64,000 nucleotides of DNA, from IMG/VR virus record IMGVR_UViG_3300009130_000015. One strand, given 5' to 3'. The DNA comes from a virus. Shown in pieces: positions 2,322-61,502 of this stretch; positions within the stretch are counted from its first letter, which is position 1; every line of letters begins with the position of its first letter. The notes below the pieces were generated by a model. The model was not told where the DNA came from. It did not search any database and saw only the letters and a program-made list of their open reading frames with translations. A program made the translations under genes and the position numbers.

Positions 2322-2889
2322 TTACAGTTCTTTTTGATTCCGATCTCATCATCTTGATCGAGAGCCAATGCTTCGTTTTGATGTATTTTTCAACACCCAT
2401 TTTAATACAGTCATTATCGATAGCCCATTTTGTAAGTTCATACACTTCTTTGTGCATTTCCGGATTGTTATCAATGGCTTTGATATATGACTCTGCAACC
2501 TCTTCAGCACCTACAGTTACTGCGTTGTAACGTCTTCCCTCCATATAGAAAAAGCGTGGATACATATCCACAATTTCGGAGACCCAAGGTACGACTTTTA
2601 ACGAGAATAAATTCTGATAATTAGGATTTATTTCGAAATAATCGTAGAATACTTTACTACCAGGAGAGTTCAAATCAATGATGATATCTCTCTCCAGTAG
2701 ATCAGCTAATTCCTCATCTGAAAGAGGGCAAACATCTTGAAATTCAAGTGTCATTGCATAACTCTCTCTTCTCCAATCTTTCTCAAGCATGGACGGATTT
2801 TGGTACAACATTTTTACAAACATTAACTGCTTTGGTGTAAGCTTTAACTCCGCACACAATCTAAGATCGTCTTTTACTTTAAACAACAT
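2302..2889 (-). CDS. Hypothetical protein overlapping the helicase start, possibly replication-associated
   Basis: 195-aa ORF with normal composition, coupled to the DnaB-like gene. No recognised motif. Confidence 0.6.
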   Translation of the reverse strand: MLFKVKDDLRLCAELKLTPKQLMFVKMLYQNPSMLEKDWRRESYAMTLEFQDVCPLSDEELADLLERDIIIDLNSPGSKVFYDYFEINPNYQNLFSLKVVPWVSEIVDMYPRFFYMEGRRYNAVTVGAEEVAESYIKAIDNNPEMHKEVYELTKWAIDNDCIKMGVEKYIKTKHWLSIKMMRSESKRTVNESTLG

Positions 2890-2911
2890 TTAAAACAAGT
2901 TTTTGCACCTG

Positions 2912-2919
2912 CAAAGGTA
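2912..2919 (-). promoter_or_regulatory. Bacteroidota sigma-A -7 element (TACCTTTG)
   Basis: Minus strand reads TACCTTTGCA about 20 nt upstream of the ATG at 2889, matching TAnnTTTG. No clear -33 TTTG. Confidence 0.55.
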
Positions 2920-3001
2920 CGTTAATACTAAACATAATGATAGTACCCTGTTAAAATTGTTGAATTAATCTCTTTTAAGCTATCAACGCTGATAACTAAG
3001 T

Positions 3002-4534
3002 TTAATTGAGTCGTCTTTGCCCACGTTTGGTAAGTATGTCATTCAACATAACCTTTAAATCGGAAACATTGTTTACCCATATTACCTTCTCTGGATTTTT
3101 TACCTGACAAGCTCTAAGCTTTTTCTCATCTCGTGAATTAGGAACATTCCAATCTGGAATATATAAGTTCACATAGATTTTTGGTGCATTCCTACCATTA
3201 GGAAGCTTCATGATTCTTGCAACTCTACCAGTCCTTTGTGTATGTTGCGTAGGATTGGTAGAACGTGAACCATCTACTCCCAATTGTACGGTAGGATCGT
3301 CGAAACCTTGGTCTAACTTCTTAGCAGAACATAAAACAGATATTTCATTACGTTCGAACTGACTCATGTGCATGTCTGCAAGTGTATTTGAACCTACTTT
3401 TTTCAGTTTTTTCCATCTTATCGTCATAGCATCCAGGTCAATTTCGACATGACTCACTCCTTCTGTTTTCTCTAACTTTATCTTTCTACTTTGCAACCCT
3501 TTAACTGTCTTATATTCCTTACTTTGGTCAATAAGAATGTCTCTGGATTCCATAGATGAATGGTATAAAGCTGCTCTTTTCCCAAGTCTATTGGCGACTG
3601 CATCTGCAAACTCAGTTGCTTGTGAAAACGTGATAGTCTTGAGATTGAATTCTTCAATTAATTCAACAGCAATATCTATCTTACGCTCGGTAGTCTCTAA
3701 TAAGTTCTTTCTCTCACCGATAGCTTTGATAGCACGAGTAGCCCATTTAACTACTTCGTTTGTCTCATAACCATTAGCTTGAGCGTAGACTTTCGCATTC
3801 ACATTTTGCAAGCATGATAGCATTACATTAAAGTCACCAAATTTCGACATGAAATATCTAATTTCTTTGTTCAATGCTTTTTGTTTCTCTATCTCAGAAC
3901 GAGTTATTGGAACAGCAAGATTAAACTCTATAAAATCAGATATCCATCCTTTTTGGATAGCTTCAACTTGTGTGATAGTATCACATACAGGAGCATACTT
4001 CTTAAGTATAGCTTCTTTTCCATCTAATCTATCCATTGTAGCTGTCAGTCCTAATATCCAAGAATATCGGATACGATCGAATATTCTTGAAAACTTATCT
4101 GCAGCCATTAAATGAATCTCATCTATGACAAGTAAATCGCAATCTCTTCTAAAGTTTTCCCCGAGTGAAACCGTGTTTATTACATGAACTTCTGTGTTCT
4201 TGTTGAGTCCTAAAGAGGACATGGTTTTTTCCCATTGTTTTTTCAGAGGTGTAGTTGGTACTACAACGATCATTCTACCATCATATTTGAGGTTCTTTTT
4301 CAACGTCTCCATTTTAGCTTTAAGTATTAGTGGGAGAGTTGATTTACCAAATCCAGTGGCCGCTTCAAGCGTACCTCTGGCTTTAGTAACTTGTTTCCAA
4401 CGAACAACACTTCGTAGTTGCCGGACATATCGTTCTGTGTCCAGTTTATCTACTGGAATGTTAATCATTGTTTTCATTTGTATTTGGATTGAAGTGTTTG
4501 TTACCCTTGTGATAAGGGTGAGTTCTGTATTCAT
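3002..4534 (-). CDS. Superfamily II DEAD/DEAH-like helicase
   Basis: Motifs AATGFGKS (I), VVVPT (Ia), VIDEIH (II), GLTAT (III), KLDQGFD (V) and QRTGRVAR (VI). The true start may be the internal MKTMINIP. Confidence 0.9.
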   Translation of the reverse strand: MNTELTLITRVTNTSIQIQMKTMINIPVDKLDTERYVRQLRSVVRWKQVTKARGTLEAATGFGKSTLPLILKAKMETLKKNLKYDGRMIVVVPTTPLKKQWEKTMSSLGLNKNTEVHVINTVSLGENFRRDCDLLVIDEIHLMAADKFSRIFDRIRYSWILGLTATMDRLDGKEAILKKYAPVCDTITQVEAIQKGWISDFIEFNLAVPITRSEIEKQKALNKEIRYFMSKFGDFNVMLSCLQNVNAKVYAQANGYETNEVVKWATRAIKAIGERKNLLETTERKIDIAVELIEEFNLKTITFSQATEFADAVANRLGKRAALYHSSMESRDILIDQSKEYKTVKGLQSRKIKLEKTEGVSHVEIDLDAMTIRWKKLKKVGSNTLADMHMSQFERNEISVLCSAKKLDQGFDDPTVQLGVDGSRSTNPTQHTQRTGRVARIMKLPNGRNAPKIYVNLYIPDWNVPNSRDEKKLRACQVKNPEKVIWVNNVSDLKVMLNDILTKRGQRRLN

Positions 4535-14988: not shown

Positions 14989-15092
14989 GATACTTTTGTT
15001 TGATTAGTGAATGGGGGTACACCGTGTTCCCGCCAATGCATAGGGGGAGGTTTGATAAAGGACTCCAACACTGAATACCCCGCACAAAAAAT

Positions 15093-15593
15093 ATGAAAAA
15101 AAATATATACACAAGTTTGGTGTACAAGAAAGTTTACCATATCTTTGGGATGTACAAAACGTACAATATGGGGACAGAATCGAACTACATCATGAAGGCA
15201 CTATACCGTAAGGACAAGTTTATCAAGGACTTACCCTCTTCTGATATGTATCGAAGACTTCTCTATAATGACGACTACACCAACGAGGAAATCATACTCT
15301 TTGAGGCAATACTACAACTCAAGAGGATACATGGGAACGGTTTCACATACGCATTCTCTCTCTTCAATCGATTGACACGTTTATCCAGAAGGAAGTTCGA
15401 AAGAGCCAGACAAGGACTCGTGGATCGATTAATCATAGAGGTAGAAGATGGTGGTTTCAAACAGCCGAACAAATACACTGTTAGAACCGCTACAATATGT
15501 GCCAACCTGCACAGGGTATATGATCTCCGAAAACTGGATAAGAAGGATGTGGCTTTTGTTTCTCACGATATCAGAGACTGGCTAACTACCTGA
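15093..15593 (+). CDS. Winged helix-turn-helix DNA-binding protein (replication-initiator or regulator-like)
   Basis: The segment FSLFNRLTRLSRRKFERARQGLVDRLIIEVEDGGFKQPNKYTV fits an HTH plus wing. The true start is probably downstream (15150, 15168 or 15192). Confidence 0.65.
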   Translation: MKKNIYTSLVYKKVYHIFGMYKTYNMGTESNYIMKALYRKDKFIKDLPSSDMYRRLLYNDDYTNEEIILFEAILQLKRIHGNGFTYAFSLFNRLTRLSRRKFERARQGLVDRLIIEVEDGGFKQPNKYTVRTATICANLHRVYDLRKLDKKDVAFVSHDIRDWLTT

Positions 15594-15695
15594 TAATCCA
15601 CATGGTGTACAAAACGTACAACACGTTGTACAAAATGTACAGCATAGTTAATATATATTTTACTTACATCTAACTATAATGTACAAAACGTACAA
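15151..15695 (+). repeat. Dispersed direct repeats TGTACAAAACGTACAA (three exact copies, one variant)
   Basis: Exact copies at 15151-15166, 15606-15621 and 15680-15695. Variant TGTACAAAATGTACA at 15627-15641. Half-site TGTACAA at 15121. Confidence 0.85.
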
Positions 15696-16146
15696 CATGG
15701 AGAAGGAAAGAGGAATAATGATGTTAAAAGAAACACTTGGATATTACACACCTGAACTTGAAGAGTTCCATATGGGATTCGAATACGAGATGTATATCCC
15801 TGGAACAAACTTCCTGTATAGCAAAGAAGTGTTCCGCCCACTACTTGTGAATGGTGTAGTTAACACATTTGACAGAGGTCTTCAGAAAGGGTGGTTGAGG
15901 GTGAAGTGTTTCGATAAGGATGATGTGACTGATCTCGGATACCCACTTGATGAATGGTTTCCAGGTAAGGGGAAATATGGTGGTACTTACATGATACACG
16001 TTACACCATCTATGCGAATTACAGTGTCCATCAAGGATATCATGAGAAATGGTTCGGGTGACTTCAAGAAGTTGGATATCATCTACCGACTTAAACTGAA
16101 GAATAAGTCAGAGCTAAAAAAACTTTTAAAACAATTGGGAATATGA
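15679..16146 (+). CDS. Hypothetical protein
   Basis: Contains YYTPELEEFHMGFEYE and RVKCFDKDDVTDLG. The first codons overlap the repeat, so the true start is probably 15697 or later. Confidence 0.7.
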   Translation: MYKTYNMEKERGIMMLKETLGYYTPELEEFHMGFEYEMYIPGTNFLYSKEVFRPLLVNGVVNTFDRGLQKGWLRVKCFDKDDVTDLGYPLDEWFPGKGKYGGTYMIHVTPSMRITVSIKDIMRNGSGDFKKLDIIYRLKLKNKSELKKLLKQLGI

Positions 16147-16577
16147 ATAACAAAGATTTTGAAGAGTTAGGATTTAGTAATATAGCTGGGTGGAGTGCGC
16201 CTGGCATGCAAACTATCAACGAGTATAAGAAGGATAACTTCAAACTGACTCACTCAATGCCAGATGACTGTGTATTGATTTCCGTAGACGAACGCACTCA
16301 CCATATTGGTGTCTTTAAATCGAAGATTAGTTTAGAGACTAAATTGTCTGACATGCAGTATTTAGTTAGACCGAGTAATCAACTACATGTTGCGATTGAA
16401 CTTAAACCAGATCAAAGATTCCTTGCGGGAGACCTTTGGAGATACAAGTTCACCCACCATGGTAAGTTGAAGTTGGTAAGCAATATAAATGTGGAGTACT
16501 ATTGCGACACACTTGAAGAAGCACAAAAATCATACGATCCATTGGAGATTGTATCAGTTCAAATTAAAAAGATATGA
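16143..16577 (+). CDS. Hypothetical protein
   Basis: 144 aa, ATGA-coupled at both ends. Confidence 0.65.
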   Translation: MNNKDFEELGFSNIAGWSAPGMQTINEYKKDNFKLTHSMPDDCVLISVDERTHHIGVFKSKISLETKLSDMQYLVRPSNQLHVAIELKPDQRFLAGDLWRYKFTHHGKLKLVSNINVEYYCDTLEEAQKSYDPLEIVSVQIKKI

Positions 16578-17149
16578 TAAAGAAGATAACAGCAGTAATC
16601 GTAAAGGGTGTAAGAATTCCCATGGAGGAGTTTAACCCTGCGCTCCTTCTTGTAGCCGAGGGAGTAGAAGTGACATATAAACCGGAAGTGAATAATTTCA
16701 AATTCACGGTTTTGGATACGAGTAAGAAGCCAACTGTATTGGACATACTTGTAAAGGGACTTGAAAAATTTCCCAAAAATGATAATGAATACGATTGGAA
16801 TTTAGCAGCAGTAGGTAACATGAACAGAATACAACTTATAAAAGTAGTGGTAGATATACGCGATGATAAAGATTTATCTACACCATTGAAGATTAGAAAA
16901 CTATCGGAGTATAAATACAATGCACACGAACACGCAAGTGAAGAGGTAGATATCCCATTTCTTGAGACTATCGCACTGGATGCAATCAAAGACTTGAAGA
17001 TGGCAGTTGTTTCTTGTAAGATCGAAGGTTGCTCGGGTACTTATTACCCAAATCACCCAGCATATAAAGAAGGTGCAAACAACACCATGCAGCAGATATA
17101 CCTGAAGTCAATTCGTACGTGGATCCAAATTGGCCGACGAGAAAGTTGA
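16574..17149 (+). CDS. Hypothetical protein; its last ~50 codons may belong to the adjacent Tad1-like gene
   Basis: 191-aa ORF overlapping the Tad1-like frame. See findings. Confidence 0.55.
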   Translation: MIKKITAVIVKGVRIPMEEFNPALLLVAEGVEVTYKPEVNNFKFTVLDTSKKPTVLDILVKGLEKFPKNDNEYDWNLAAVGNMNRIQLIKVVVDIRDDKDLSTPLKIRKLSEYKYNAHEHASEEVDIPFLETIALDAIKDLKMAVVSCKIEGCSGTYYPNHPAYKEGANNTMQQIYLKSIRTWIQIGRRES

Positions 17150-17339
17150 GAAAAGAGAAGGTACTCTTCATGAGCATTTATTATCAGCAATGATCGCTGA
17201 TTTGAAGTTCAAACATCAATTGGTTCCATCGAAAGAACGAGCAGTAGCAATCACTAAACTCGAGGAAGCAAGAATGTGTATGCAAGAAAGACAAATTAAC
17301 AGAATTGAAGCGGGTACGCTTGGAACTTACAAAAAGTAA
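17130..17339 (+). CDS. tad1-like: Tad1-like (Acb2/Tad1 hairpin-type) immune-signal sponge, C-terminal part
   Basis: GTLHEHLL...PSKERAVAITKLEEARMCMQERQINRIEAGTLGTYKK matches the recalled Tad1 C-terminal pattern (G..x..LL...S[RK]E.A.A[LI]T..EEA.M.M..R...RIE...LGT..K). TTG start. The in-frame Tad1-like SQFVRGSK lies upstream of that start. Confidence 0.75.
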   Translation: MADEKVEKREGTLHEHLLSAMIADLKFKHQLVPSKERAVAITKLEEARMCMQERQINRIEAGTLGTYKK

Positions 17340-17347
17340 AAAGAATT

Positions 17348-18367
17348 ATGGAAGCAGTAAAATTAACACCTTACGTAGGTGTAAAGTCGATCAAAGCATC
17401 GGCACCAATGACAAAGAAAGAGTATTGTGAAATTCGCGGATGGGTTGTACCAGCTAACGAGGATTCAAATGAAATGGTAGTGTTGGTTGAATACCCACTT
17501 GAACCAGGAAAGATTGCTAATGTCCCAGGCTATGATGGATACGTTTCCATGTCTCCACTATCTGTGTTCGAGAAAGCATATGCTGAAGTTACTGGTGATA
17601 CAGAGGAGCCTGCATTATCTGAGATTATCGAAAGAAACTACAATGGTAAAGCCATCACTGATGGATACCACACTCGTGGGGAATTGTATGATTTCAGAAA
17701 GATGTACAATTGTGCGTTATTCAACGAATGGGCAGCTCAAGGGAAATACCAAGTTCACAAGTCTAAGAAACACCACGATGGTGAGGATTGTTTCGGTGGT
17801 GGATGGTTCATCGTAGTTGCAGTATTACCAACAGGACAGATCAGTAACCACTACAAGTTAGAGGATTGGAATCTTTTCAATGTGCCAACTGCCGAGAAAG
17901 CCATGTTCGAATTTGATGGACACACTCCAGAAGATGTATTAGCAAGACTTGAGTACTTAACTAAATCTAAACCTGTGAAATTGGATCCAAAAGAAAACAG
18001 TGCTCCACAAGAAGCACAACCAGTTGCGAAATCTTTAGGAAACACTGACGCAAATGGTGCGAAGAAGAATGTTAAAGATATCAAGTTCTGGGGTAATGGT
18101 GACACATTCAAGTTGATCTCAAAAGCATCTTCTGCAGCAGAAGGATGGATGAAGTCTACTAAAGCAATGGAAATCCCATTTGTAGGATGTGTAATTCAAG
18201 TAACCACTCAACAGGGAGATAATGTTTCTGAAGCTGTCACTTTTGTACCAGGGGTTAAAATCGTAGAGAAGATTGAGAATGAAATTGTGGTAGAGAGAAA
18301 GATAATATCAATACATGATAGAATTGAAGACATCCACAAGAAATTGGAAAAAGAGTATTTAGGTTAA
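17348..18367 (+). CDS. Three-domain fusion protein, candidate anti-defence: Y.G.K/SP..FE..Y domain, WDGH-type domain and EGWMKSTKAM domain
   Basis: aa 6-80: YVGVKSIKA.PMT...RGW...VEY...GY.S.SP..VFEKAY. aa 101-204: ITDGYHT..ELY...GWF...LPTGQIS.HY...FDGHT. aa 227-322: GNGDTFKLISKASS..EGWMKSTKAMEIP.VGCVIQVTTQQ. The domains are separated by charged or Pro-containing linkers. Confidence 0.7.
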   Translation: MEAVKLTPYVGVKSIKASAPMTKKEYCEIRGWVVPANEDSNEMVVLVEYPLEPGKIANVPGYDGYVSMSPLSVFEKAYAEVTGDTEEPALSEIIERNYNGKAITDGYHTRGELYDFRKMYNCALFNEWAAQGKYQVHKSKKHHDGEDCFGGGWFIVVAVLPTGQISNHYKLEDWNLFNVPTAEKAMFEFDGHTPEDVLARLEYLTKSKPVKLDPKENSAPQEAQPVAKSLGNTDANGAKKNVKDIKFWGNGDTFKLISKASSAAEGWMKSTKAMEIPFVGCVIQVTTQQGDNVSEAVTFVPGVKIVEKIENEIVVERKIISIHDRIEDIHKKLEKEYLG

Positions 18368-18376
18368 TAAATAATG

Positions 18377-18404
18377 GAGGAGTTCTAAAATGAGCTCCTC
18401 TTTA
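18377..18404 (+). terminator. Intrinsic terminator closing the 15.1-18.4 kb unit
   Basis: GAGGAGTTC-TAAAAT-GAGCTCCTC-TTTT. Confidence 0.75.
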
Positions 18405-18494
18405 CTTTCATGTCATGATAAACAAAGTAGCAATCATATCACTTGTAGTAATCGTTATTATTCGTATTTTAACGAACTGAAAAAATTCTAACCA

Positions 18495-18674
18495 ATGGGT
18501 AGCCCACACGAGAAGTATCTTAATGCATTCCAAGGATTGAAGAAAAAGAAGGTTAATAAACCAGGGTTCAAACCGATGACTTTTTCAGAGATTCAAGAAT
18601 CCATGATTAATGCAGAAAGAAAGGGCCAAAGAAGGGCCAAAGGAACATGTACATTCTTCAATGACCTGTTTTAA
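18495..18674 (+). CDS. Small basic protein (59 aa)
   Basis: Hand translation MGSPHEKYLNAFQGLKKKKVNKPGFKPMTFSEIQESMINAERKGQRRAKGTCTFFNDLF. Confidence 0.55.
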   Translation: MGSPHEKYLNAFQGLKKKKVNKPGFKPMTFSEIQESMINAERKGQRRAKGTCTFFNDLF

Positions 18675-18924
18675 TATCTTCTATTAAATGTTTGAGTAAC
18701 TTATTCTCACCCTTTAGACGTTCATTCTCCCTGATGTACTCAAACTTAAACTCTGTGAAATCTTTCACATGTTTCGCCTGATCTTCTTTCAGCTTTATCA
18801 TTTGAACTTCCATGTTCTCTTCACGATCATCTATCCCATCCACTTTGTAGTATAATCCACCTGCGGTAAAGATTAATCCTATCATAACTGTGATGTTACT
18901 CTTAAATATTTCTCCGACATTCAT
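18658..18924 (-). CDS. Lone antisense membrane-anchored coiled-coil protein
   Basis: Transmembrane-like segment ITVMIGLIFTAGGLYY followed by a charged helical tail. Confidence 0.6.
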   Translation of the reverse strand: MNVGEIFKSNITVMIGLIFTAGGLYYKVDGIDDREENMEVQMIKLKEDQAKHVKDFTEFKFEYIRENERLKGENKLLKHLIEDIKTGH

Positions 18925-19012
18925 AACGATTCACAAGATACCAAAAAAGCTCACCCTCTCAAAGCCTGGGTTCATATATACGACATACTCGTAATTTTTA
19001 TATCTACATTGC

Positions 19013-21468: not shown

Positions 21469-21739
21469 ACACACAGAACAACTCGAAAAATTGGCAGCAG
21501 AAGATCCAGAAGGATCGTTTGAAGCCAAGAAGGTTGAGGATATGAATCGCGCTGAAAGAAGGAGTCGCGGTAAGTATTACAAGGATTTATATAAAAAACA
21601 CATCAAGGCTAAACCAAGTGTTAACCTTGAGTTGGAGGGTCAGGAAGCATACGATCAACAGATGAAAATGCAAGCATGGGCTACTCGATATGGAATCCTG
21701 ATGAAGAAATTAAGTGAACTTGGAGTTAAGATAAAATGA
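21455..21739 (+). CDS. Hypothetical protein
   Basis: 94 aa containing MNRAERR, coupled to its neighbours. Confidence 0.6.
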   Translation: MDPNKHTEQLEKLAAEDPEGSFEAKKVEDMNRAERRSRGKYYKDLYKKHIKAKPSVNLELEGQEAYDQQMKMQAWATRYGILMKKLSELGVKIK

Positions 21740-21981
21740 GTCTAAAACACGTAGTACAAGGATATTCGAATAGTGCACTCGATAGTGTAGGTAAACTCTC
21801 ATCTGTTAAGAAAAAGATAGCAGACGAGAGAATGGGAATTTGCAAGAAGTGCCCTATATTTGATTCAAGCACAAACATTTGTCAAAAGGATCAAGGGGGT
21901 TGTGGTTGCCTGATGACTAAAAAAGTTTATGCTATGGACGCATCGTGTCCCCAGAAAAAATGGAAACCAGCAAACATATAA
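21736..21981 (+). CDS. Small Cys-rich (zinc-binding) protein
   Basis: RMGICKKC...C...CGC...K......CPQKKW. Confidence 0.7.
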   Translation: MSLKHVVQGYSNSALDSVGKLSSVKKKIADERMGICKKCPIFDSSTNICQKDQGGCGCLMTKKVYAMDASCPQKKWKPANI

Positions 21982-35049: not shown

Positions 35050-35909
35050 TTCACAACTTAAACTCCATAGATAGAATAATCAACAAGATCATTACGGATC
35101 TTGGTTTAGGTCATCAAGAAGTACCATATCAATCATTTATTGAATGGATTGCTGATGCACTTGAACATATTGGTAGTTACTACCAATTCGAGGAGAAAGC
35201 ATGTGAGATTTTGATTCAGGATTACGATGGTATGTTACCTTGTGATTTCCATAAGCCAATCAAGCAGTTCCTTAAAAATGGATGTGAGATTGTCCCAGGT
35301 CCTGGAGGATTCTATGGTGGGTCATTAACACATACGTTGAATCAATGTGGGGTTGACTATGAGAGTCTACCTGCGTATGAAAGATTTAAGCTCATTGCGG
35401 TCCCAGGCTTACAGAGAACGAACGTAACTGATACGATTGACGGTATTGTTGATAGACTTCAGTTCAATAAGAATCTAATTGGAGATCCGAGAGTTAGTAA
35501 GTTTACTGACATGGATTGGAATATAAACTTCAATAAGATTACTACATCATTTAGATATGGTGTTATTTCCATCCAATATTTAGCAATGCCTACTGATGAT
35601 AGAGGTTTCCCATTAGTTCCAGATGATGTTTCTTTCAGAGATGCTTTATTCTGGAAGTGTGCAATGCATATTTGTATGCTAAATCCTTCGTTGATAAAGA
35701 ACCCACAACTTCGTAACTATGAAGCATGTGAAAGTAGATGGTTGAAGTACTGTGCTCAAGCAAGAGCAAGTGCTAATATGCCTGATCTTGAAATGCTTGA
35801 GAGATTGAAGAACAACTGGTTGAGATTACACAACGATGTTGGGTTTGATAGAAATGATTACAAAGAGAACGGTAAGCCTCAATACTTAAACTTAGACGGT
35901 AGATACTAA
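35046..35909 (+). CDS. Tail ring protein
   Basis: FIEWIADALEHIG and ISIQYLAMPTDDRGFPLVPDDVSFRDALFW motifs of crAss ring proteins. Confidence 0.7.
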   Translation: MIHNLNSIDRIINKIITDLGLGHQEVPYQSFIEWIADALEHIGSYYQFEEKACEILIQDYDGMLPCDFHKPIKQFLKNGCEIVPGPGGFYGGSLTHTLNQCGVDYESLPAYERFKLIAVPGLQRTNVTDTIDGIVDRLQFNKNLIGDPRVSKFTDMDWNINFNKITTSFRYGVISIQYLAMPTDDRGFPLVPDDVSFRDALFWKCAMHICMLNPSLIKNPQLRNYEACESRWLKYCAQARASANMPDLEMLERLKNNWLRLHNDVGFDRNDYKENGKPQYLNLDGRY

Positions 35910-38900
35910 TGGAAGCAAATACGTTTTTAGGTGGGATGGATACTAATTCACATCCTAAGAAGCAAAAAGAACATACAACACGAGAAGTTATAAACTTCGT
36001 ACCATTATCTGAAGATGGAAACTTGTTCAGTGTCACCAACGAAAGTGGCACACTTCAAGTTACTGCATCTTTTCCTGCTGGTTTTAGACCTATTGGACAC
36101 ACCGTTCTTGGTAGTGAGATTATTGTCATCATTGCTGATTCATCTGGTAACAACCAAGTTGGATACATCATTGAGGACAATAACCCAGATCCTACATATG
36201 GTTTCTACCACCCGGTAGCACCATTGGATCCTGGTACGGGTAATGTACCTGTTAACAACAGTGAATTTGGATTTACACAAGCACATCCAGTTGATTGTGT
36301 TAGTAGAAAGTTGATCAATGGACATCGTGTATTATACTTCACAGATAATAATGTACCATACGGTAGAGTTGATTTAGACAGTCCCCCTGAAGTAGGCAGT
36401 GTTGAAGATGAGGTGAAACTTACTTTCAATCAGTCAATTCCCGATATTAATATCACAGGTATTGTAGAAGGGGTGCAGAGTACTATACAGCCTGGGATCG
36501 TTCAGTTCATAACTCGTTATGTTACTCCAACTGGAGGTGAGACGGTATTTGGAATTCCAACACAACCATTGCCAATGGTGCCTTCAGATAGAGCTGATGG
36601 TGCAAATAATTATGCTGGTGAATTCTATGAGTATGGTACAATTAACAAGAATGTTCGATTGGAGATCACCAATGTCGATACTAAGTTTGCTGAACTTGAG
36701 ATAGTTGCAATATACTATGAGGGTTCACAATCAGTATTTAAGTCATCTGTTGTTGGTCAAATTCCAATCACTTCAGATACCATAAACTTCACATATACAG
36801 GTCCAGATACTGAGACTGAGATAACTTTGACTCGTGAGGAGTTGAGGAAAATATTGATTTCCTATACTCATGCCAAGTGTATTGAGCAGAAGGACAACAC
36901 ACTGTATTTATCAAATCTTAGAGATGGTAGATCTGGATACAATGAAGTTTTACAAGAGATAGCCAATAAGGTTCGTATTAAATATAGAACTCAAGAGGTT
37001 CAGTTTTCAGGTAGAGGTGATGATGCAACTACTACCGAATTGGCATTTACAGCAATTGGTAATCCATACATTACAAGTATTTTCACATTGGTTCTTCCAA
37101 TGTCAGAGGACGTGGACCCAATAACAGGTGGTGTAACTGGTACTTACGAGCTATCTCGTCCTGGTGAAGTTGCTTCTGCTGATATTACAATTGTAGATTT
37201 CTCTCAGATTGGAGATGGTGACACAATTATCATTGATACTTCTACTGGTGGAGGTGGTTTGACACAAACTACAGTTACATTTACAGCGAGAAACAGTCCG
37301 ACATTACCCGATGAGTTTGCAATTGGAACCGATAATGACTCGACTGCGGCCAACTTAATCGATGCGATAAACAGTTCGGTTAATGTTATTGATTATGTGG
37401 CTGTACCTGGTGCAACTACAGATGTTGTCACGCTTTTATGGTCTACTATAGACTTGGATGCAAATGGTGTTTCTGTTACTTATTCAGGATTACCCGCTGC
37501 AATAACTACTACAAACTTCACTGGTGCAAATACCACACCAACAACTGTACCTGCAACTGCAGCGGTTGTTTCTGGTAGTAATGTTTCAATATCTTTTGGT
37601 TCTCCAATTAGTACTGCTGATTCATTACTTGTTTTAGCACCTGGTATTAATAACACAGAAACACCTGCTGAAAACTTTACACTATCTGCTACAGGGTTAC
37701 CTTTAGTTATTGATGCTCCACAAGGGAGCAGTACTGCAGGATCAAGTCCTGGATTCACAGATTATACCAATGAGATATTAACTGTAACATCGAAAGGGTA
37801 TAGGAGAGATGAGGTTTATTCATTAGCGTTCACTCTTCTGTTTAAAGATGGTACGACTACGAATGCATTCCATATTCCTGGCTATGCTGGCTATGTTGAT
37901 GATGCTACATTTGGCGCAGGTCAAAATAGATTTGCTCCTACAGGTTTGGACGCTTGGCCCTCTTTCAGCCAGGTTAATAACTCTAACTATTTCGTTGGTA
38001 CATATGTTTCAGAAACAGTATACCCAACGGAGCAAGATTATCCAGGAGATCAACCTGGAGATGATAATACAGAACAAGGTCCTGGTGTCAATACAGCTCG
38101 TAACGTTAGACATCACTTGATGCCTAAACTTGAGAACGAACCACATTATAGAAATGACAATGGTACAGAGTTTGTAAGAATTTTATCATTGGACTTTGAA
38201 TTCGTTGTTCCAATTCCAGCATTCATATTAAACGAAGTACAGGAAATCATCTTCTTAAGAGAAAGAAGAAGCAATAGTACTAATAGATCTGTAGTGTCCC
38301 AAGGACTTACCAACAATACAATGATCAATGCAGATAGCTTTGATAATGATGGTAAGGTTCAAGGTGCTATAATAGATGGGGGTACAGGTGTTTACAAAGA
38401 CATGAAGGCTGGTTATATGGTTGCGGAGAACATCTTCTTTGGTGGTGAAACATCATTGGAAGTTGCAGATAACTATGAGGAGAATGGAGCTCGTGTTGAT
38501 GCGGGTCAGTGTTATCCAAATTTCCCAACAGCAGGTTACGCTTCACCTAACTATAGTAATGGTTTTAGATTAAACTCTGAAATATTCAAAGATCAAGTTA
38601 GATACCACAGTCCTGAGACAAACCTACTTACAGGATTTAGATTTGAAGCAGGTTCCATTGAAGGAGCTACTTTAGATCCGGTATTACTATTGAAAGGTAG
38701 AATTGATAAAGCTGTTAATTTCCATGAGGATATCCAAGTTGGTGATTCTGGAACATTTCAGTTAAATCAGAACTACATTAAGACTTACATGTATGCAGAT
38801 TTCTTCTGTAACTACAATGATTACGATACTGTTGTTGCTATTCCAACCCCAAGAATTATAGATGAAGCAAGGTATTTAGATGCTAATGTTAAGAGGGTTG

Positions 38901-40936
38901 ATTCAATTCGTATCAATGAGCCAGGCTTGAAGAGTACAACTCGATTCAACCAAGGTGGACTTGAGATATTAGCTGATCAGGATTTACCTGATGTTCCGAA
39001 CATTACTGATTTCAAGATATATAATGATTTTGATCGTAAAGGTGATGGGGATTTAGATACAGGACAAGGGCTTGCAAGTAGAATGTTTGAGAATAACTCA
39101 GGGTTAAACTTAAAATGGAACGGTGTAGATTGTGAAAGATACCTGTATAACATTAAGGTAAATAATATCAATCAGTATGGACAACTAACTCTTGCAAGTT
39201 TCATACCAGTTGAAAGAGAAGAGATATTGAATCCAGGTGGTGGATTTAGAACTACATATAATGGGATATTTGGTGGTGATACCTTCATTACTAAATATGC
39301 ATTCAACAATGGACATGTTGTTCCTTACGATCCTTTTGACGAGGATGGAAACAATACGATCAATGGTAATGGTAGATCTACTTCAGCAAGAGGGTATGCT
39401 AATATCGATGGTCTTGATCAGGGAGGTAAGGCACATGGGTGGGATTTCCGAACATGTACATACTACTTTGTAGAGTCAAACATCAATACATACTATCGTC
39501 ACAGACCTGAAGAAGAAACTAAGCAGGATTATTTCCCAAATCAAAGTGATTTGAGTATTCTATTGAATGATTACTTTGCTACATTAGGTAATATCAGAGC
39601 TTACAACACTCAGTATTCATACGAGAATAATGTTCGTGAATACTTTGTTAGAGGTTCTTTGGATACTGCTATTACAGATTTCGAAAACAGAACAATTTAT
39701 TCAGAACAAGCTGCGGAAGACGATACGTTGGATGCATATAGATCTTTCTTACAGAATGACTTTTACGATTTACCTTCGGAAGGGGGTCCAATATGGGATA
39801 CATTTGTTGAGTATAATACTCTTTTTATGCATACTCCTAAGTCCCTTTGGAGAACTTTTGCAGAACCTGCAGCCACGATCAGCGGTGGGAACATTTCAGA
39901 TGCGGTACTTGGGACCGGCCGTTTATTTGCGAGACCTTCTACTGAAGTCCTTGAGACCGAAGGGGGTTATGGAGGTAGTATTTCACAGTTTGCTGGAGCT
40001 CATTCGAAGATTGGTTATATATTCCCGGACGTATTACAAGGGAAAGTTTTTGTACTTGCGATTGGTAAAGGCGGGCCGTTCCTTAAAGAACTTAGTAAAG
40101 AAGGACTCTCAACGTTTATGCACAAGAACCTTGAGTTAGGTTTGACGAGATTTGCAGGTCAGTTTGATCTTTCTAAAGTTACTACAGCGGATTCCCATTT
40201 GATAGATAATCCATATATTGGAATCGGACTTGTTGGTGGATATGATTATAAACTCGATAGATATTTCCTTGTTAAGTTCCCAGTGGACGGTGAAACAGAT
40301 GGATTTACTGTTACGTTTGTGAAGGATACTAACAACTGGTTTAGTTATCATTCGTATAAACCTAATGTTATTATTCCTTATGATAACAGAGTCGTGTTTT
40401 TAAGGAATCAGGATAACGCAGGTAATTTAATTGATGGTGAAGTTCACGAAATGAATGTTGGTCCTAAAGGGTCATACTTCGGAACTGTTTATGATTCAGA
40501 GTTAACATATGTTACTGTTGCAAAAGACAAGGCTAATATCTATAACAACTTGGTAATCAACTCAGAAAGTGTAGATAGAACAACAGGAATTAAACAGAGA
40601 GATGATAACTTCTATGAACTTCAGGTTTACAATGAGAGAAATAACACAGGTAACTATACATTAGTTCCTGATAATGATTTCGGTACTGTTATAAATGCAG
40701 GTGAAACATCTATCAAGTTTAGAAATGATGAATACAGAGTTGCTATTCCAAGAGATTCTGTAGTTGATAACTCTGGTGATATATTTGATCCAGGTAACTT
40801 AGATAACGTAAACCCACCAATCCGTGAAAGGATTAAAGGTAGATACGCTATCGTTAAATTAAAGTACGATAATACTAACGATATAGAGTTTGTTTTAAAC
40901 CACATAAAAACTATCTTTATAAACAACTTCAGATAA
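35909..40936 (+). CDS. Tail muzzle/stabilisation protein with an internal beta-rich insertion
   Basis: 1675 aa. N-terminal NTFLGGMDT, GYRRDEVYSLA, GGDTFITKY, and a C-terminal RIKGRYAIVKLKYDN. Lies between the ring and cargo genes. Confidence 0.8.
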   Translation: MEANTFLGGMDTNSHPKKQKEHTTREVINFVPLSEDGNLFSVTNESGTLQVTASFPAGFRPIGHTVLGSEIIVIIADSSGNNQVGYIIEDNNPDPTYGFYHPVAPLDPGTGNVPVNNSEFGFTQAHPVDCVSRKLINGHRVLYFTDNNVPYGRVDLDSPPEVGSVEDEVKLTFNQSIPDINITGIVEGVQSTIQPGIVQFITRYVTPTGGETVFGIPTQPLPMVPSDRADGANNYAGEFYEYGTINKNVRLEITNVDTKFAELEIVAIYYEGSQSVFKSSVVGQIPITSDTINFTYTGPDTETEITLTREELRKILISYTHAKCIEQKDNTLYLSNLRDGRSGYNEVLQEIANKVRIKYRTQEVQFSGRGDDATTTELAFTAIGNPYITSIFTLVLPMSEDVDPITGGVTGTYELSRPGEVASADITIVDFSQIGDGDTIIIDTSTGGGGLTQTTVTFTARNSPTLPDEFAIGTDNDSTAANLIDAINSSVNVIDYVAVPGATTDVVTLLWSTIDLDANGVSVTYSGLPAAITTTNFTGANTTPTTVPATAAVVSGSNVSISFGSPISTADSLLVLAPGINNTETPAENFTLSATGLPLVIDAPQGSSTAGSSPGFTDYTNEILTVTSKGYRRDEVYSLAFTLLFKDGTTTNAFHIPGYAGYVDDATFGAGQNRFAPTGLDAWPSFSQVNNSNYFVGTYVSETVYPTEQDYPGDQPGDDNTEQGPGVNTARNVRHHLMPKLENEPHYRNDNGTEFVRILSLDFEFVVPIPAFILNEVQEIIFLRERRSNSTNRSVVSQGLTNNTMINADSFDNDGKVQGAIIDGGTGVYKDMKAGYMVAENIFFGGETSLEVADNYEENGARVDAGQCYPNFPTAGYASPNYSNGFRLNSEIFKDQVRYHSPETNLLTGFRFEAGSIEGATLDPVLLLKGRIDKAVNFHEDIQVGDSGTFQLNQNYIKTYMYADFFCNYNDYDTVVAIPTPRIIDEARYLDANVKRVDSIRINEPGLKSTTRFNQGGLEILADQDLPDVPNITDFKIYNDFDRKGDGDLDTGQGLASRMFENNSGLNLKWNGVDCERYLYNIKVNNINQYGQLTLASFIPVEREEILNPGGGFRTTYNGIFGGDTFITKYAFNNGHVVPYDPFDEDGNNTINGNGRSTSARGYANIDGLDQGGKAHGWDFRTCTYYFVESNINTYYRHRPEEETKQDYFPNQSDLSILLNDYFATLGNIRAYNTQYSYENNVREYFVRGSLDTAITDFENRTIYSEQAAEDDTLDAYRSFLQNDFYDLPSEGGPIWDTFVEYNTLFMHTPKSLWRTFAEPAATISGGNISDAVLGTGRLFARPSTEVLETEGGYGGSISQFAGAHSKIGYIFPDVLQGKVFVLAIGKGGPFLKELSKEGLSTFMHKNLELGLTRFAGQFDLSKVTTADSHLIDNPYIGIGLVGGYDYKLDRYFLVKFPVDGETDGFTVTFVKDTNNWFSYHSYKPNVIIPYDNRVVFLRNQDNAGNLIDGEVHEMNVGPKGSYFGTVYDSELTYVTVAKDKANIYNNLVINSESVDRTTGIKQRDDNFYELQVYNERNNTGNYTLVPDNDFGTVINAGETSIKFRNDEYRVAIPRDSVVDNSGDIFDPGNLDNVNPPIRERIKGRYAIVKLKYDNTNDIEFVLNHIKTIFINNFR

Positions 40937-43066: not shown

Positions 43067-46000
43067 ATGGGTAAGGGTATCAATAGATTTGAGAGTCCGG
43101 TTAAAGATCAATACGTTCAAACATATGTTGATCAATATGTTCCTGCTCCTTTTGAACTAATGCAGCGTAAAGCTGAAGCTGAACAAAAGAAGTTTGACAC
43201 AGTTCAGAACAACTGGGATGTTTTAAATCAGAAGATGGGTGAGAGGTTATTGAAGGCTGATAATCCATTGATGGCGGAACAAATGGGTACTATTCAGACT
43301 ACTGTTGATAATGCCTTGAAGGAAGCTGACGGTGATTGGCGTAAGTTAAATCGTGAAATCGTTAATGCTTCAGGTGCTTATAATAAGTGGATCAAGACAG
43401 GTCTTGGTGCAGAAGCTCTTGTTCAAAAGAAGAAGATGGCTGATAACTTGAAAGCAATCCAGGATTCTAAGATGGGCGGTGACATGAAAGTCGCGTGGGC
43501 TAATAAACTTGAAGATGATTACAACACAATTGGTGGTGTTGTTCATGGTGGTCAAGTGGGAGATCCTATTTTATATGATGTTTCAGAGCTCCAAAAGACA
43601 GCTCAAACTATGATATCCCAGTTGAAACTGGATAAAGATTCTAACGCTTATGTTAATATTGATGATAAGCAAGGATTACTTATAACAGGATTTGAAGATA
43701 AAGGAGATGTTTCTAAGGAAAGAATTCGTCAGCTTTCAGGTATGATGAAAAATCATCCTGAGTTCCAAGCTATGGTTGAATCCGAGTATGCTGTAAAGCA
43801 ACCAAACATGACTAAACAAGATTTTGCAGATTATAGATTTGCTCAAATGTTTAGTGGATTGGATGCGAATGCATACGTGGAGGAAAAGAATAGAATCAAA
43901 GCCAAAGAGACAACTGCTGCAAAAGAGAAAGCAAAGAAGAAAAAGAAGTACACTCCTGTTACTCCTAAGATATCTAAGATGGATTCTTTCCAATACGATC
44001 CGAATGCGGAATTCGTAGACGAAGATAAAGATATTGTAGATGATCCATTGAATACCATAATGACTAACAATGCCAATGAAGGTAAAAACTTAGTTAATGG
44101 TACACTTAAAGATATCTACTTCAAGAATAATGTACCACATGGTACAACTGCTGAGAATAAAGAAGCTTTTGAATCCAATATTGCCAAGTGGATGACAGAT
44201 CATGGTGTTGAAGTTGGTAAGGATGGCAAACCTACAGATGAGAATTATAATGATTTCATCAAGTTCGTAGCGACCGCAGATGACATTAGCTCTACCAATT
44301 CACTATTTAATGGTAACTCAGCGCAACAAAAGATATTCAGAGATAAGGCTAAAGCTTCATATAAGAATATCCTTAGACGAAACCAGTTGTTTGAGGAGGC
44401 AGAACAACAACTTAAGTCTGCAGGTATTGTTGTAGCATCAGAGAATGCAGTTAAGCAAAATGAAACAGGATTGATCAATGCAATCGATGCGTATTACGCT
44501 AAGAAGCATGAAGGTATGGAGATTGATGCTGATTATATGACTGATTTAAAGCAGATTATATTTGAAGACGATCCTACTTTCTTCACAGCAGGCGGTAAGA
44601 ACTATAAGGCCAAGCAGGTGTTGAATGAAATCAAACATTACAACGCCAGTGATGATAAATCTAAGTTCACAAAATCACCTGAGTTCATTAAGATGGCTGA
44701 GATGTTTGAGAACTTAGAGAGTAGTAGAGATATACTTGGCAAGAAGGGAGATGATGATTATTACAAGAATAAGATAAACGCAATCCTTACAAACAGGATG
44801 AAGGGTGGATCTATTTCTATACCTGAGAGTAATCAAACTAATGTTAAGGTTTATAACCGTGATACTGGTAAATACGAAGATGGTATATTATCATCTGATA
44901 AGTTATACAAAGACTTCTTAAAACCTAAAGCTGAGGCTGTTGCAAACATGAAAATGTTAGATGGTACAGGTAAGGAAGTTAGACTTGGTGATTATATCAC
45001 AAAGACATATGGTAAATTAAAACCAAACGAAGTAGAGGGTATCAAAGCCGGTATCTTAAAGTCTGGTATGTTTACAGATGTTGTTGATCCTGTTACTGGT
45101 AACATGGAAGTGGTATTCTCTGATTCTAAAACAGGTAAGAAGTTTAGAATGCCTATCAATATTGGAGGTAAGGGTACTGAAAATACTTTAGGTATAGGTG
45201 AAGGTGAGCTTAAATTGACTAAGACTCAGCAAGCTAAGATGAAATTATGGGGTGATGTTCAAGCAGCTAAGATGGGATACCTGGAGTACGCTCCGGCTGG
45301 TGATCCTGAATTAGGTGTTTCCATTCATAGTAAAAAGAGAGGTTTAATGGATGATGATGGTGCAACATTCGATGATGCATTAGCTACAAATGGAAACTAC
45401 AATGTTTCTATTAACCCACGTAAATTGGGACTTTATATCCCAGGCCCTAAAGGAAATACCACTCTTGATAGGATTGAGATTCCAAATGATCAGGCTGCGA
45501 ATGTTCTTTTAACATACCAGTCTATTCTTGACGGTAATATTTCGGAAGCTCAAAAGCAAAAGTACGCAGGTATGTCTAACCATGACATTGCCAAATTGTA
45601 TTTAAGACGTAAGGTTGAATCAATCCAAAGAGTTGGTGCACCTCAACAAGAGTCTAAACCATTCACTATGGAAACTGGTGGAATGGGTCGGACAGATGAT
45701 CCGGTAGGTAGTGATGCTTATACTAAAAAGAAAGAAGCTGAAGAAGCTTTAAAAAAAAAAAGTAATGAACAAGTAATCTATAAGGATGCTAAGTTCACTA
45801 CTGTTCCCATTAAAGATTTCTATGGGAATGATGTAAAGCTAAAGAAACCAGTTGCTGATGCATTGATTGTTGCTAACACTAAGTTGAAAGACCAGGGTGT
45901 TGATATCAAGATTGCAGATAACTATGTTTCTTCAGATGTTAAAGTTAAAGCATACAATGAGTACAAGGCTCAGTTAAAAGAGTACAACTCAAAGGGTTAC

Positions 46001-46219
46001 TACACGAAGAACGGTCAGAAGATTAAATCAAAACCCCCAAAGCAAGCGGGTTCTAAATCTTTCCACTCACATGGTCAAGCAATTGACTTACAGCAGATTG
46101 CTTCTATGAAGAATGAGGTTGTTTTCCAAGCGTTGAGAGATGCTGGATTTAAACAACACCCGAACGAATGGTGGCATTGGTCGATTGGTGAGTTTACTCA
46201 CGATCATGATCATGGTTGA
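43067..46219 (+). CDS. Cargo protein with a C-terminal M15 (VanY-like) Zn peptidoglycan peptidase domain
   Basis: N-terminal YVDQYVPAPFELM. C-terminal SFHSHGQAIDL (H...D zinc ligands) and EWWHWS (E-x-x-H). Confidence 0.8.
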   Translation: MGKGINRFESPVKDQYVQTYVDQYVPAPFELMQRKAEAEQKKFDTVQNNWDVLNQKMGERLLKADNPLMAEQMGTIQTTVDNALKEADGDWRKLNREIVNASGAYNKWIKTGLGAEALVQKKKMADNLKAIQDSKMGGDMKVAWANKLEDDYNTIGGVVHGGQVGDPILYDVSELQKTAQTMISQLKLDKDSNAYVNIDDKQGLLITGFEDKGDVSKERIRQLSGMMKNHPEFQAMVESEYAVKQPNMTKQDFADYRFAQMFSGLDANAYVEEKNRIKAKETTAAKEKAKKKKKYTPVTPKISKMDSFQYDPNAEFVDEDKDIVDDPLNTIMTNNANEGKNLVNGTLKDIYFKNNVPHGTTAENKEAFESNIAKWMTDHGVEVGKDGKPTDENYNDFIKFVATADDISSTNSLFNGNSAQQKIFRDKAKASYKNILRRNQLFEEAEQQLKSAGIVVASENAVKQNETGLINAIDAYYAKKHEGMEIDADYMTDLKQIIFEDDPTFFTAGGKNYKAKQVLNEIKHYNASDDKSKFTKSPEFIKMAEMFENLESSRDILGKKGDDDYYKNKINAILTNRMKGGSISIPESNQTNVKVYNRDTGKYEDGILSSDKLYKDFLKPKAEAVANMKMLDGTGKEVRLGDYITKTYGKLKPNEVEGIKAGILKSGMFTDVVDPVTGNMEVVFSDSKTGKKFRMPINIGGKGTENTLGIGEGELKLTKTQQAKMKLWGDVQAAKMGYLEYAPAGDPELGVSIHSKKRGLMDDDGATFDDALATNGNYNVSINPRKLGLYIPGPKGNTTLDRIEIPNDQAANVLLTYQSILDGNISEAQKQKYAGMSNHDIAKLYLRRKVESIQRVGAPQQESKPFTMETGGMGRTDDPVGSDAYTKKKEAEEALKKKSNEQVIYKDAKFTTVPIKDFYGNDVKLKKPVADALIVANTKLKDQGVDIKIADNYVSSDVKVKAYNEYKAQLKEYNSKGYYTKNGQKIKSKPPKQAGSKSFHSHGQAIDLQQIASMKNEVVFQALRDAGFKQHPNEWWHWSIGEFTHDHDHG

Positions 46220-61200: not shown

Positions 61201-61502
61201 ATTTATTAAGAAGGCAATATGGTGAACTTTTATTTTACACTCCTGTTAATCCTGCAGAGCTATCGAGAGTTATGAGAACTCCAACTGCTGCTCTATCGAC
61301 AGTTGAACTTGGAACAAAATTAGCTGTTCAATTGCTTGAGGATGCAGGTAGTGCAGAATTGGAAGTATATCAATCTGGTAGACATAAAGGTGAGTACAAG
61401 TCAGATGTATTGATGAATAGAATGTTTAACCCGTTCTATAAGAACTTCACTGATAAAGAAGTGAAGGAATCGTACGAATATCACACAAATATTAGGCAAT
61501 AA
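58260..61502 (+). CDS. Large helical cargo protein
   Basis: N-terminal CPNINSPEWKKLVESVGELEAY motif and a C-terminal hydrophobic helix (FGFMMATLTASVLLA). Follows the RNA polymerase gene. Confidence 0.7.
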   Translation: MSHCPNINSPEWKKLVESVGELEAYAAYIKNGYDIPAVDADGNYSIDDKPSSDIDLTQDDAEADNLKQLTKNRNKILNALKTKYEIYEGSKKQESVKKLKKLIEDFEQADISRSLVIYMNSVDKNITELTARMDKGGNLAFVKLLHDFSGTFAMIKDVSKMMQTRSDISQASKDKVAALVGRVDAFNDMYLAKSKDIMVNELAAQSSIARAKAKKKYAREYEENHPRSKSSMSKKEYDAAKKEYVKNMLNENRAQILRNEKTYVRELLNTAPQDISSFTYHLIDPRGVNDHIIQLAVKQLDKADFAVKEQFIKDRREAMEVFDNYKKSRKGILVTDQKKFYEGIIEKVDGKETGFYVRPFYSHYYKALNEKNRAVEATDVAIERAKIIKEFQKKYQVRDPKTNKWTAKPEYVNKQYKELDSKPETKAMYEYLVNFNKKSDTMVASKMRLGYRLPSMTKNLTETATDNGIVDTATRAWKDAVSIQKDDYQYGEIQDEDGVVKVITDEHGNALRRVMVPFRNRVDIKDQSFSLMEMALSNRFASINYQEKNEIKTELEVLENIMKERDVVQNKNGKKMVRKMRDMFGVEEDEHQELLSKGINSNAYKLMHDIMEDRLYGRRNVKGGEFLGISVDKVAEKAIQFSSNNMLIANYLGGTANVLAGKVMNFLEGTRKMHYSRKDLRAAEGKYINDFRGWSSDVGKVGRPTSKTNMLVEKFIDTSMDFSGMSNDLSKDTKFKQLFQVKTLHGINSAAEHYIQSTLVYAVLNNTKVTNKKGEFIDKDGNITKDRDKAMTMDQAYEAGKDGLVWKNKDWTIEGFEKFDGDVEFVISRKLKDITADLQGNYDDTNRAQVQRYWYGKLGFFLRKWMVRGVQRRWRGIGNVKEGNIEDHAFYSEGQGEFKEGTYASAARYLRNVYMEGKMIQAQIYSQEWNKLSDVEKSNIVSTAYEFGFMMATLTASVLLAKLAKGADSDEEEERLYTAAYLLRRQYGELLFYTPVNPAELSRVMRTPTAALSTVELGTKLAVQLLEDAGSAELEVYQSGRHKGEYKSDVLMNRMFNPFYKNFTDKEVKESYEYHTNIRQ

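Follow-up and report, generated by a model that had tools for sequence, protein, structure and literature searches.

The stretch of viral DNA analyzed here (IMG/VR record IMGVR_UViG_3300009130_000015; 64,000 nucleotides (nt); hereafter 'the window') contains, at positions 17348-18367 of its (+) strand, a gene for a protein of 339 amino acids (aa), P0001, that joins three domains: an N-terminal domain of the family phrog_872, here called D1; a WDGH domain; and a C-terminal Lockin domain. The D1-WDGH-Lockin arrangement is a new architecture of fused anti-signaling sponge, of which the Lockin part is already known, and D1 and WDGH are strong candidates for counter-defense modules. On balance, we favor the interpretation that P0001 is a modular phage counter-defense protein in which Lockin would sequester Thoeris signals as a hexamer and in which D1 and WDGH would be further immune-signaling modules. 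The identities of the domains, the conservation of the Lockin ligand residues, and the statistics of fusions and gene neighborhoods are direct observations. The gene and its parts are as follows:

17348-18367, (+): whole gene for P0001, D1-WDGH-Lockin fusion, 339 aa (open-reading-frame (ORF) listing and translation)
17366-17587, (+): domain 1 (D1), about aa 7-80, small alpha/beta domain, phrog_872 (phrog_872 match and AlphaFold2)
17651-17953, (+): domain 2, aa 102-202, WDGH, PF25311 (Pfam match)
18029-18313, (+): domain 3, aa 228-322, Lockin sponge domain (PDB 9p8l and PF26760)
18314-18364, (+): C-terminal tail of 17 aa, charged, probably helical, past the Lockin core (outside the 9p8l alignment and the local Lockin hidden Markov model (HMM))

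A first-pass annotation of the window had described a single 339-aa ORF made of three domains joined by charged or Pro-containing linkers, and its domain limits prove nearly exact. D1 extends over aa 7-86 in the local HMM, and AlphaFold2 confidence holds to about aa 80; Lockin aligns with PDB 9p8l over aa 228-303 and with the local HMM over aa 227-322. The two linkers (aa 81-101, acidic; aa 203-227, Lys/Pro-rich) both lie at drops in the predicted local distance difference test (pLDDT) score. All motifs quoted by the first-pass annotation are present: Y9.G11.K13, P20-M-T22, V47-E-Y49, S67.S69-P70, and F74-E..A-Y78 in D1; DGYHT (105-109), HHDG (142-145), NHY (167-169), and FDGH (189-192) in WDGH; and GNGDTFKLISKASS..EGWMKSTKAM (aa 249-274) in Lockin. 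The protein is called identically on seven public contigs, and four public assemblies match the segment 16574-18367 throughout the overlap (1,778-1,794 nt), three of them without difference and one with a single mismatch; the arrangement is thus no one-off assembly artifact. A megablast search of 15000-19000 against 50,697 phage records gave no match, NCBIfam and PADLOC gave nothing meaningful for P0001 or its five upstream neighbors, and PF11195 (Tad2/DUF2829) has no Pfam match anywhere in P0001.

The results for domain 3 identify it as Lockin. In a phmmer search of all PDB chains, aa 228-303 match 9p8l ('Lockin') with an E-value (E) of 1.1e-18 as the sole strong match, and the precomputed Pfam annotation of P0001 includes PF26760 (Lockin). 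The alignment covers the whole Lockin core, and all six ligand contacts of LockinA are kept: K35, K45, S46, T47, K48, and Q59 correspond to P0001 K259, K269, S270, T271, K272, and Q284. Mutation of K45 or K48 weakens LockinA (10.1101/2025.07.12.664507). Described in 2025, Lockin is a sponge that forms hexamers and sequesters 3'cADPR; some members also inhibit type II Thoeris, for which the signal is His-ADPR (10.1101/2025.07.12.664507); the mechanism expected for domain 3, by homology, would be the same, a hexamer sequestering 3'cADPR or, as in some members, His-ADPR. We consider it very probable, from homology, that domain 3 is a Lockin with Thoeris-sponge function. Having a crystal structure and a Pfam family, domain 3 is already known biology. 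The first-pass annotation had therefore guessed rightly that the domain is a sponge and wrongly that it is a conserved domain without known function; likewise, its idea of a multi-signaling fusion stands as regards a three-domain fusion from the phage anti-signaling module pool, and not as regards an undescribed domain 3. What differs from described Lockins is the setting: those stand alone, with about 90-125 aa, whereas in P0001 Lockin makes up the C-terminal third of 339 aa and is followed by the 17-aa tail. Lockin is found fused at either end, with WDGH following it in P0003 and P0004 and with D1 preceding it in P0058 and P0176.

Domain 1 matches phrog_872 (E 8e-15) and belongs to a large family: a D1 profile search of 1.84 billion representatives returned 4,280 clusters (50% identity) at E ≤ 1e-3, and domain architectures were counted in the best 148 of the 4,280, both by Pfam and by local HMMs. 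D1 itself has no Pfam, NCBIfam, or PDB sequence match, profile search included (Pfam to E 10, aa 1-100), and a word-indexed homologue search with D1 alone gave no candidates. Its partners are known sponges. By Pfam, the 148 proteins contain Tad2-like modules (38), Sequestin (PF21825; 38), and Acb4 (PF13876; 22), and the Tad2, Sequestin, and Acb4 modules adjoin the D1 segment and do not overlap it. By local HMMs, there are 37 D1-Tad2, 30 D1-Sequestin, 14 D1-Acb4, five D1-Tad1/Acb2, and one D1-Lockin proteins, together with several triple fusions. A known sponge module (Tad2, Sequestin, Acb4, Tad1/Acb2, or Lockin) is fused in 98 of the 148; the other 50 have no detected partner, and 24 of these 50 have fewer than 35 extra residues and are essentially D1 alone. 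The first-pass claim that domain 1 is often fused to DUF2829/Tad2 is thereby confirmed, with P0002, P0007, and P0013 as relatives that combine D1 and Tad2. In the ESM Atlas, too, the structural neighbors of D1 are clusters, for the most part viral, that consist of Tad2, Sequestin, or Acb4 fusions. One such fusion, D1 with a Tad2-like module in Escherichia phage Huey (locus L001, 1501-2001), is annotated 'anti-CRISPR protein', a label that is probably misleading and was presumably transferred from AcrIIA7/DUF2829.

The proposal of the first-pass annotation that domain 1 is itself of the Acb4 type does not hold. D1 has no PF13876 match, and neither its sequence nor its profile finds an Acb4 PDB chain; instead, PF13876 is a separate module, C-terminal and sometimes N-terminal to D1, in 22 of the 148 proteins. 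Acb4 (PF13876; SPO1 Acb4, PDB 9E4W) thus belongs to the same module pool and is often fused to D1, but D1 is a distinct domain that adjoins it in the same proteins. The paper on Acb4 refers only to some homologues with 'additional extensions'. The AlphaFold2 model of D1 has a pLDDT of 90.5. Its comparison with the PDB by Foldseek and VIA-align 2 gave weak rows only, the best with a Z of 3.8 to DUF1653, which does not by itself prove a new fold; the Foldseek and VIA-align lists hold no Acb4 chain, an absence compatible with a shared fold. A two-copy complex prediction for D1 reached 0.33 against a mark of 0.42 and was weighed neither way on oligomerization. TadIV-1 was ruled out as an identity for either D1 or WDGH, as it has a PDB entry (9WIW) and no PDB sequence match was found; TadIV-1 is T4 Vs.3, a dimer restricted to Straboviridae.

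For domain 2, the first-pass assignment to the WDGH family is borne out: PF25311 matches P0001 at 115.5 bits (cut-off 27; E 1.4e-33) over aa 102-202 and profile positions 2-95 of 97. The AlphaFold2 model, from an alignment of 119 relatives, has a pLDDT of 92.1 and the order helix, three strands, two helices; against the PDB it gives no Foldseek row at E ≤ 0.001 and a best VIA-align Z of 3.8, from which a new fold does not follow. The domain is strikingly well conserved, with 65-79% identity to hundreds of metagenomic proteins from unrelated phage contexts. P0001 keeps the whole conserved polar set, comprising D105, H108, T109, N121, N126, H137, K138, S139, H142, D144, E146, C148, N167, H168, Y169, D173, D190, H192, T193, D196, and R200. 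Within the approximately 100 residues of the domain, five His and six Asp/Glu are conserved, and, in the secondary-structure string, read without three-dimensional analysis, two 'DG(Y)HT' motifs each stand just ahead of a predicted helix; the pairs are possibly a phosphate-binding or catalytic arrangement. A literature search of open-access PMC and bioRxiv found no relevant paper on WDGH, PF25311, PF26760, or the PHROG numbers, and an ESM Atlas feature search for WDGH that passed over PF25311 gave no usable match. Given its His and Asp residues and its anti-signaling context, WDGH might share the activity of the signal-degrading phage enzymes Acb1, Apyc1, and Acb5, but it has no sequence or fold similarity to them. 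That WDGH is Acb5 was ruled out, as the Acb5A and Acb5B sequences in preprint tables are unrelated to it.

Two further observations concern WDGH proteins elsewhere. In P22-like phages the WDGH protein is 'Orf186', of 186 aa (locus L009, 1309-1869, Salmonella phage BTP1; also phages L, ST64T, and others); gene 4 of these phages encodes the head-tail adaptor. In two loci related to this phage (L015, 3788-4375; L017, 3800-4426), WDGH follows a different N-terminal domain of about 85 aa that ends in ...GE.YPCKP[DE]IFE.TY; this end resembles that of D1 (...SWSPK.VFE.AY), and the two domains may be distantly related.

The association of WDGH with sponges extends from fusions to gene neighborhoods. 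WDGH is fused to D1, Tad2, Sequestin, Lockin, or Tad1/Acb2 in 12 of 119 WDGH proteins of 186-594 aa. We searched 80 IMG/VR WDGH loci and 116 random viral loci, the latter obtained with an arbitrary 14-mer, with the same local HMMs. A sponge module is fused or within 5 kb in 15 of the 80 WDGH loci and, after de-replication, in 13 of 72, vs. 1 of 116 random loci (Fisher p 1.8e-5), an enrichment of about 25-fold whose size is approximate, since the random control is unmatched for accessory-gene regions. The sponge genes near WDGH are always on the same strand, and the nearest module is within about 350 nt in eight loci. In L015 and L017 the modules occur unfused, as an islet of, in this order, a WDGH gene, an Acb2/Tad1-hairpin gene (PF24729, 34.5 bits), and a Lockin gene. 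The mapping of fusion partners and gene neighbors that the first-pass annotation had proposed thus places WDGH near sponges more often than random viral loci, and its argument of guilt by association is upheld for this domain. Just 5' of the L015 islet lies a SegE-like GIY-YIG homing endonuclease (2886-3323; PF19835, E 4e-20). Homing endonucleases have been reported to spread anti-defense genes.

In the scheme that follows, the hexamer, the binding of ligand, and whatever D1 or WDGH may do are inferences. P0001 would string three independently folding modules along one chain. The Lockin module would assemble into a cog-like hexamer, as in LockinA, and bury 3'cADPR (1''-3' gcADPR), or in some members His-ADPR, in pockets between neighboring protomers, which would starve the effector ThsA of its activator. 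On such a hexamer, D1 and WDGH would each be present six times. D1, which is small, rich in invariant aromatic and basic residues, and also free-standing, would most likely be another small-ligand sponge, and WDGH, from its conserved His and Asp/Glu, either a sponge or a signal-processing enzyme. One gene of the early operon could in this way blunt several signaling defenses at once, as has been shown experimentally for a Tad2-Acb4 fusion.

The scheme has precedents among fused sponges. Tad2-Acb4 (Pasteurella phage Pm86), Tad2-Sequestin, and Sequestin-Acb4 resemble P0001 in that independent modules and flexible linkers lie on one chain; block of more than one defense by one protein has been proposed for such fusions and shown for Tad2-Acb4, which cancels both Thoeris and CBASS, the antiphage signaling system based on cyclic oligonucleotides (10.1101/2025.07.12.664507). 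They differ from P0001 in that they join two characterized sponges, whereas P0001 joins one characterized sponge to two uncharacterized domains. Sequestin was itself discovered by the logic of sponge fusions (10.1101/2025.07.12.664507); that search used Pfam families, and D1, which has none, was therefore invisible to it. Reviews of October and November 2026 list seven sponge families only, with D1 and WDGH not among them, and we found no description of the D1-WDGH-Lockin order.

Several observations weigh against the interpretation of P0001 as a modular counter-defense protein. Neither the D1 model nor the WDGH model shows a detectable resemblance to any solved nucleotide-binding fold. The D1 of P0001 departs from consensus at 4 of 25 conserved columns, including a near-invariant Trp (M68 in P0001, which falls in a sub-group with Met at this position). 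WDGH occurs mostly as a stand-alone protein of 110-140 aa (1,820 proteins of 66-210 aa), is also found, together with DUF551 and unannotated regions, in multi-domain proteins of 400-540 aa, and in P22-like phages takes the form of a moron inserted after the coat gene and before gene 4. No known sponge lies near about 80% of WDGH loci, and the size of the enrichment is subject to the limit of the control given above. Set against the fusion and neighborhood results, these points leave the interpretation, in our judgment, probable. A more specific version, that D1 and WDGH are two large families that sequester or destroy immune second messengers and that P0001 is a hexameric three-in-one inhibitor of Thoeris and up to two further defenses, we put forward tentatively, as a real possibility that falls short of an expectation. 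Both models are confident and have no detectable PDB relative, so this version, if true, would add new folds to the seven known sponge families.

The alternative that best survives is that only Lockin acts on a signal, with D1 and WDGH as anti-defense modules of another kind that bind and block sensor or effector proteins or tune the assembly, stability, or timing of the sponge. Tad3-Tad8, for example, block ThsB or ThsA by protein binding. The sponges that carry D1 differ widely in symmetry, being dimers, tetramers, or hexamers (oligomer states, PMC13712596), as would be expected if D1 were a generic helper or an independent binder, and the failure to detect a known nucleotide-binding fold points the same way. 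However, small free-standing versions of both D1 and WDGH are numerous, which argues that they act on their own, and a WDGH identity of 65-79% fits a universal small-molecule target better than it fits fast-evolving host proteins. We consider this alternative unlikely, though worth keeping in view.

A second alternative, which we regard as less likely again, is that WDGH is a metal-dependent enzyme acting on nucleotides, NAD, or nucleic acid, not aimed at immune messengers, and carried as cargo of mosaic 'polyvalent' proteins and accessory islands. The many conserved His, Asp, and Cys residues of WDGH would suit such an enzyme, as would its presence in 400-540 aa proteins with DUF551 and other unannotated domains and its place as a moron within the head-gene cluster of P22-like phages; anti-defense islands, moreover, mix many functions. 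Polyvalent proteins of phages and conjugative elements are reportedly, in the account of Iyer et al. (2017), mosaic chains of small counter-defense domains with low-complexity linkers, and some of the 400-540 aa WDGH proteins look like such chains, but P0001 is a short protein whose modules all come from the sponge-associated pool. What stands against WDGH as unrelated cargo is the range of its partners, five families (Tad2, Sequestin, Lockin, Tad1/Acb2, and the D1 partner) that are fused to it or adjoin it on the same strand, and the enrichment of about 25-fold relative to random viral DNA.

That the fusion as a whole has no selected function, being either an assembly artifact or a chimera that is inert or in decay, is very improbable: the Tad1-like neighbor is truncated, which points to an islet under remodeling, and the exact D1-WDGH-Lockin order occurs once among the sampled proteins, but the four assemblies, from several samples, are identical except for the one mismatch, the reading frame is intact, the conserved WDGH residues and Lockin contact residues are all kept, and the pairwise fusions D1-WDGH, WDGH-Lockin, and D1-Lockin recur in other proteins.

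The features that flank the P0001 gene are as follows:

16574-17149, (+): 191-aa ORF, with a 20-nt overlap with the Tad1-like frame, in another frame (ORF listing)
17106-17339, (+): Tad1-like C-terminal hairpin; listed ORF 17130-17339, TTG start at 17130, 69 aa (Tad1 chains, phrog_2428, gp072)
18376-18411, (+): terminator-like hairpin and T-rich tail directly 3' of the P0001 gene (consensus scan)

The first-pass annotation had placed the gene 8 nt after a Tad1-like gene and last before a terminator, and both positions are as it said: the upstream ORF stops at 17339, leaving a gap of 8 nt, and the hairpin at 18376-18401 has a stem of 10 bp with five G-C pairs, followed by TTTACTTTCAT. The terminator consensus scan of the region gave 11 sites vs. 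3.2 expected. As to the neighbor itself, the match to Tad1 holds for the C-terminal hairpin and not for a whole Tad1. The ORF matches Tad1 PDB chains in the C-terminal half only (E 6e-4), matches phrog_2428 at positions 68-131 of 131 (E 2.4e-13), and scores 20.2 bits with PF24729, under the cut-off of 27. Its closest annotated relative is gp072 (114 aa) of Cellulophaga phage phi17:2, with 61% identity over 76 aa (gp072 residues 39-114). The homology to gp072 starts at 17109, right after an in-frame TGA at 17103-17105, and a tblastn search of all frames upstream gave no N-terminal match; we conclude that the Tad1-like gene is 5'-truncated. Compared with Tad1 (PDB 7UAV, 8KBH), the ORF shares the C-terminal helical hairpin but lacks the N-terminal part, a loss of about 38 aa when measured against gp072 and of about 60 aa when measured against Tad1. 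If expressed from the TTG at 17130, it would make the 69-aa hairpin alone. Recoding of the TGA was ruled out, as code 11 leaves ORFs as long as 3,989 aa open. We also rejected a +1 frameshift that would fuse the hairpin to the 3' end of the 191-aa ORF, since neither BLASTP nor tblastn supported the alignment made by eye. That the best Tad1-like relatives are in Cellulophaga phages is a hint, from sequence, of a marine Bacteroidota host.

The 191-aa ORF has no fitting Pfam, PHROG, NCBIfam, or PADLOC family and no relative in the viral contigs searched. A stretch of 24 aa within it (16925-16996; EHASEEVDIPFLETIALDAIKDLK) shows a weak likeness to the first helix of the Tad1-like hairpin (42% identity; E 0.026, for a very small search space), which may reflect either a remnant or chance.

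As a phage genome, the window has minus-strand replication genes (DnaB-like helicase, second helicase, DNA polymerase) as far as about 14 kb and, from about 15 kb, small unknown ORFs in a rightward block. These are followed by genes for the large terminase subunit (22924), the portal (25237), and the major head protein (29426). Still farther downstream are ORFs of up to 3,989 aa (46280-58249, (+)), with three more of over 1,000 aa (35909-40936, 43067-46219, 58260-61502); the four may encode giant proteins that are part of the virion or are ejected. Three copies (15150-15179, 15605-15634, 15679-15708) of a 16-30 nt motif, TGTACAAAACGTACAA..., coincide with or closely precede the starts of two neighboring small ORFs; the copy in the middle is in part a palindrome, and the motif may be a promoter or operator of the early block. 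A small Cys-rich ORF (CxxC...GCGC...CP.KKW; 21736-21981, (+)) has, by eye, apparent counterparts in L007 (1746-2369) and L017 (5775-6182), the former being phi17:2 gp073, just 5' of the phi17:2 Tad1-like gene.

Phage sponges and signal-cleaving enzymes reveal which bacterial immune signals matter in nature. The D1 family is very large, and known sponges are the fusion partners in two thirds of the members sampled; D1 and WDGH may yield new inhibitors, possibly of signals that have no known sponge, and P0001 offers all three modules in one clone.

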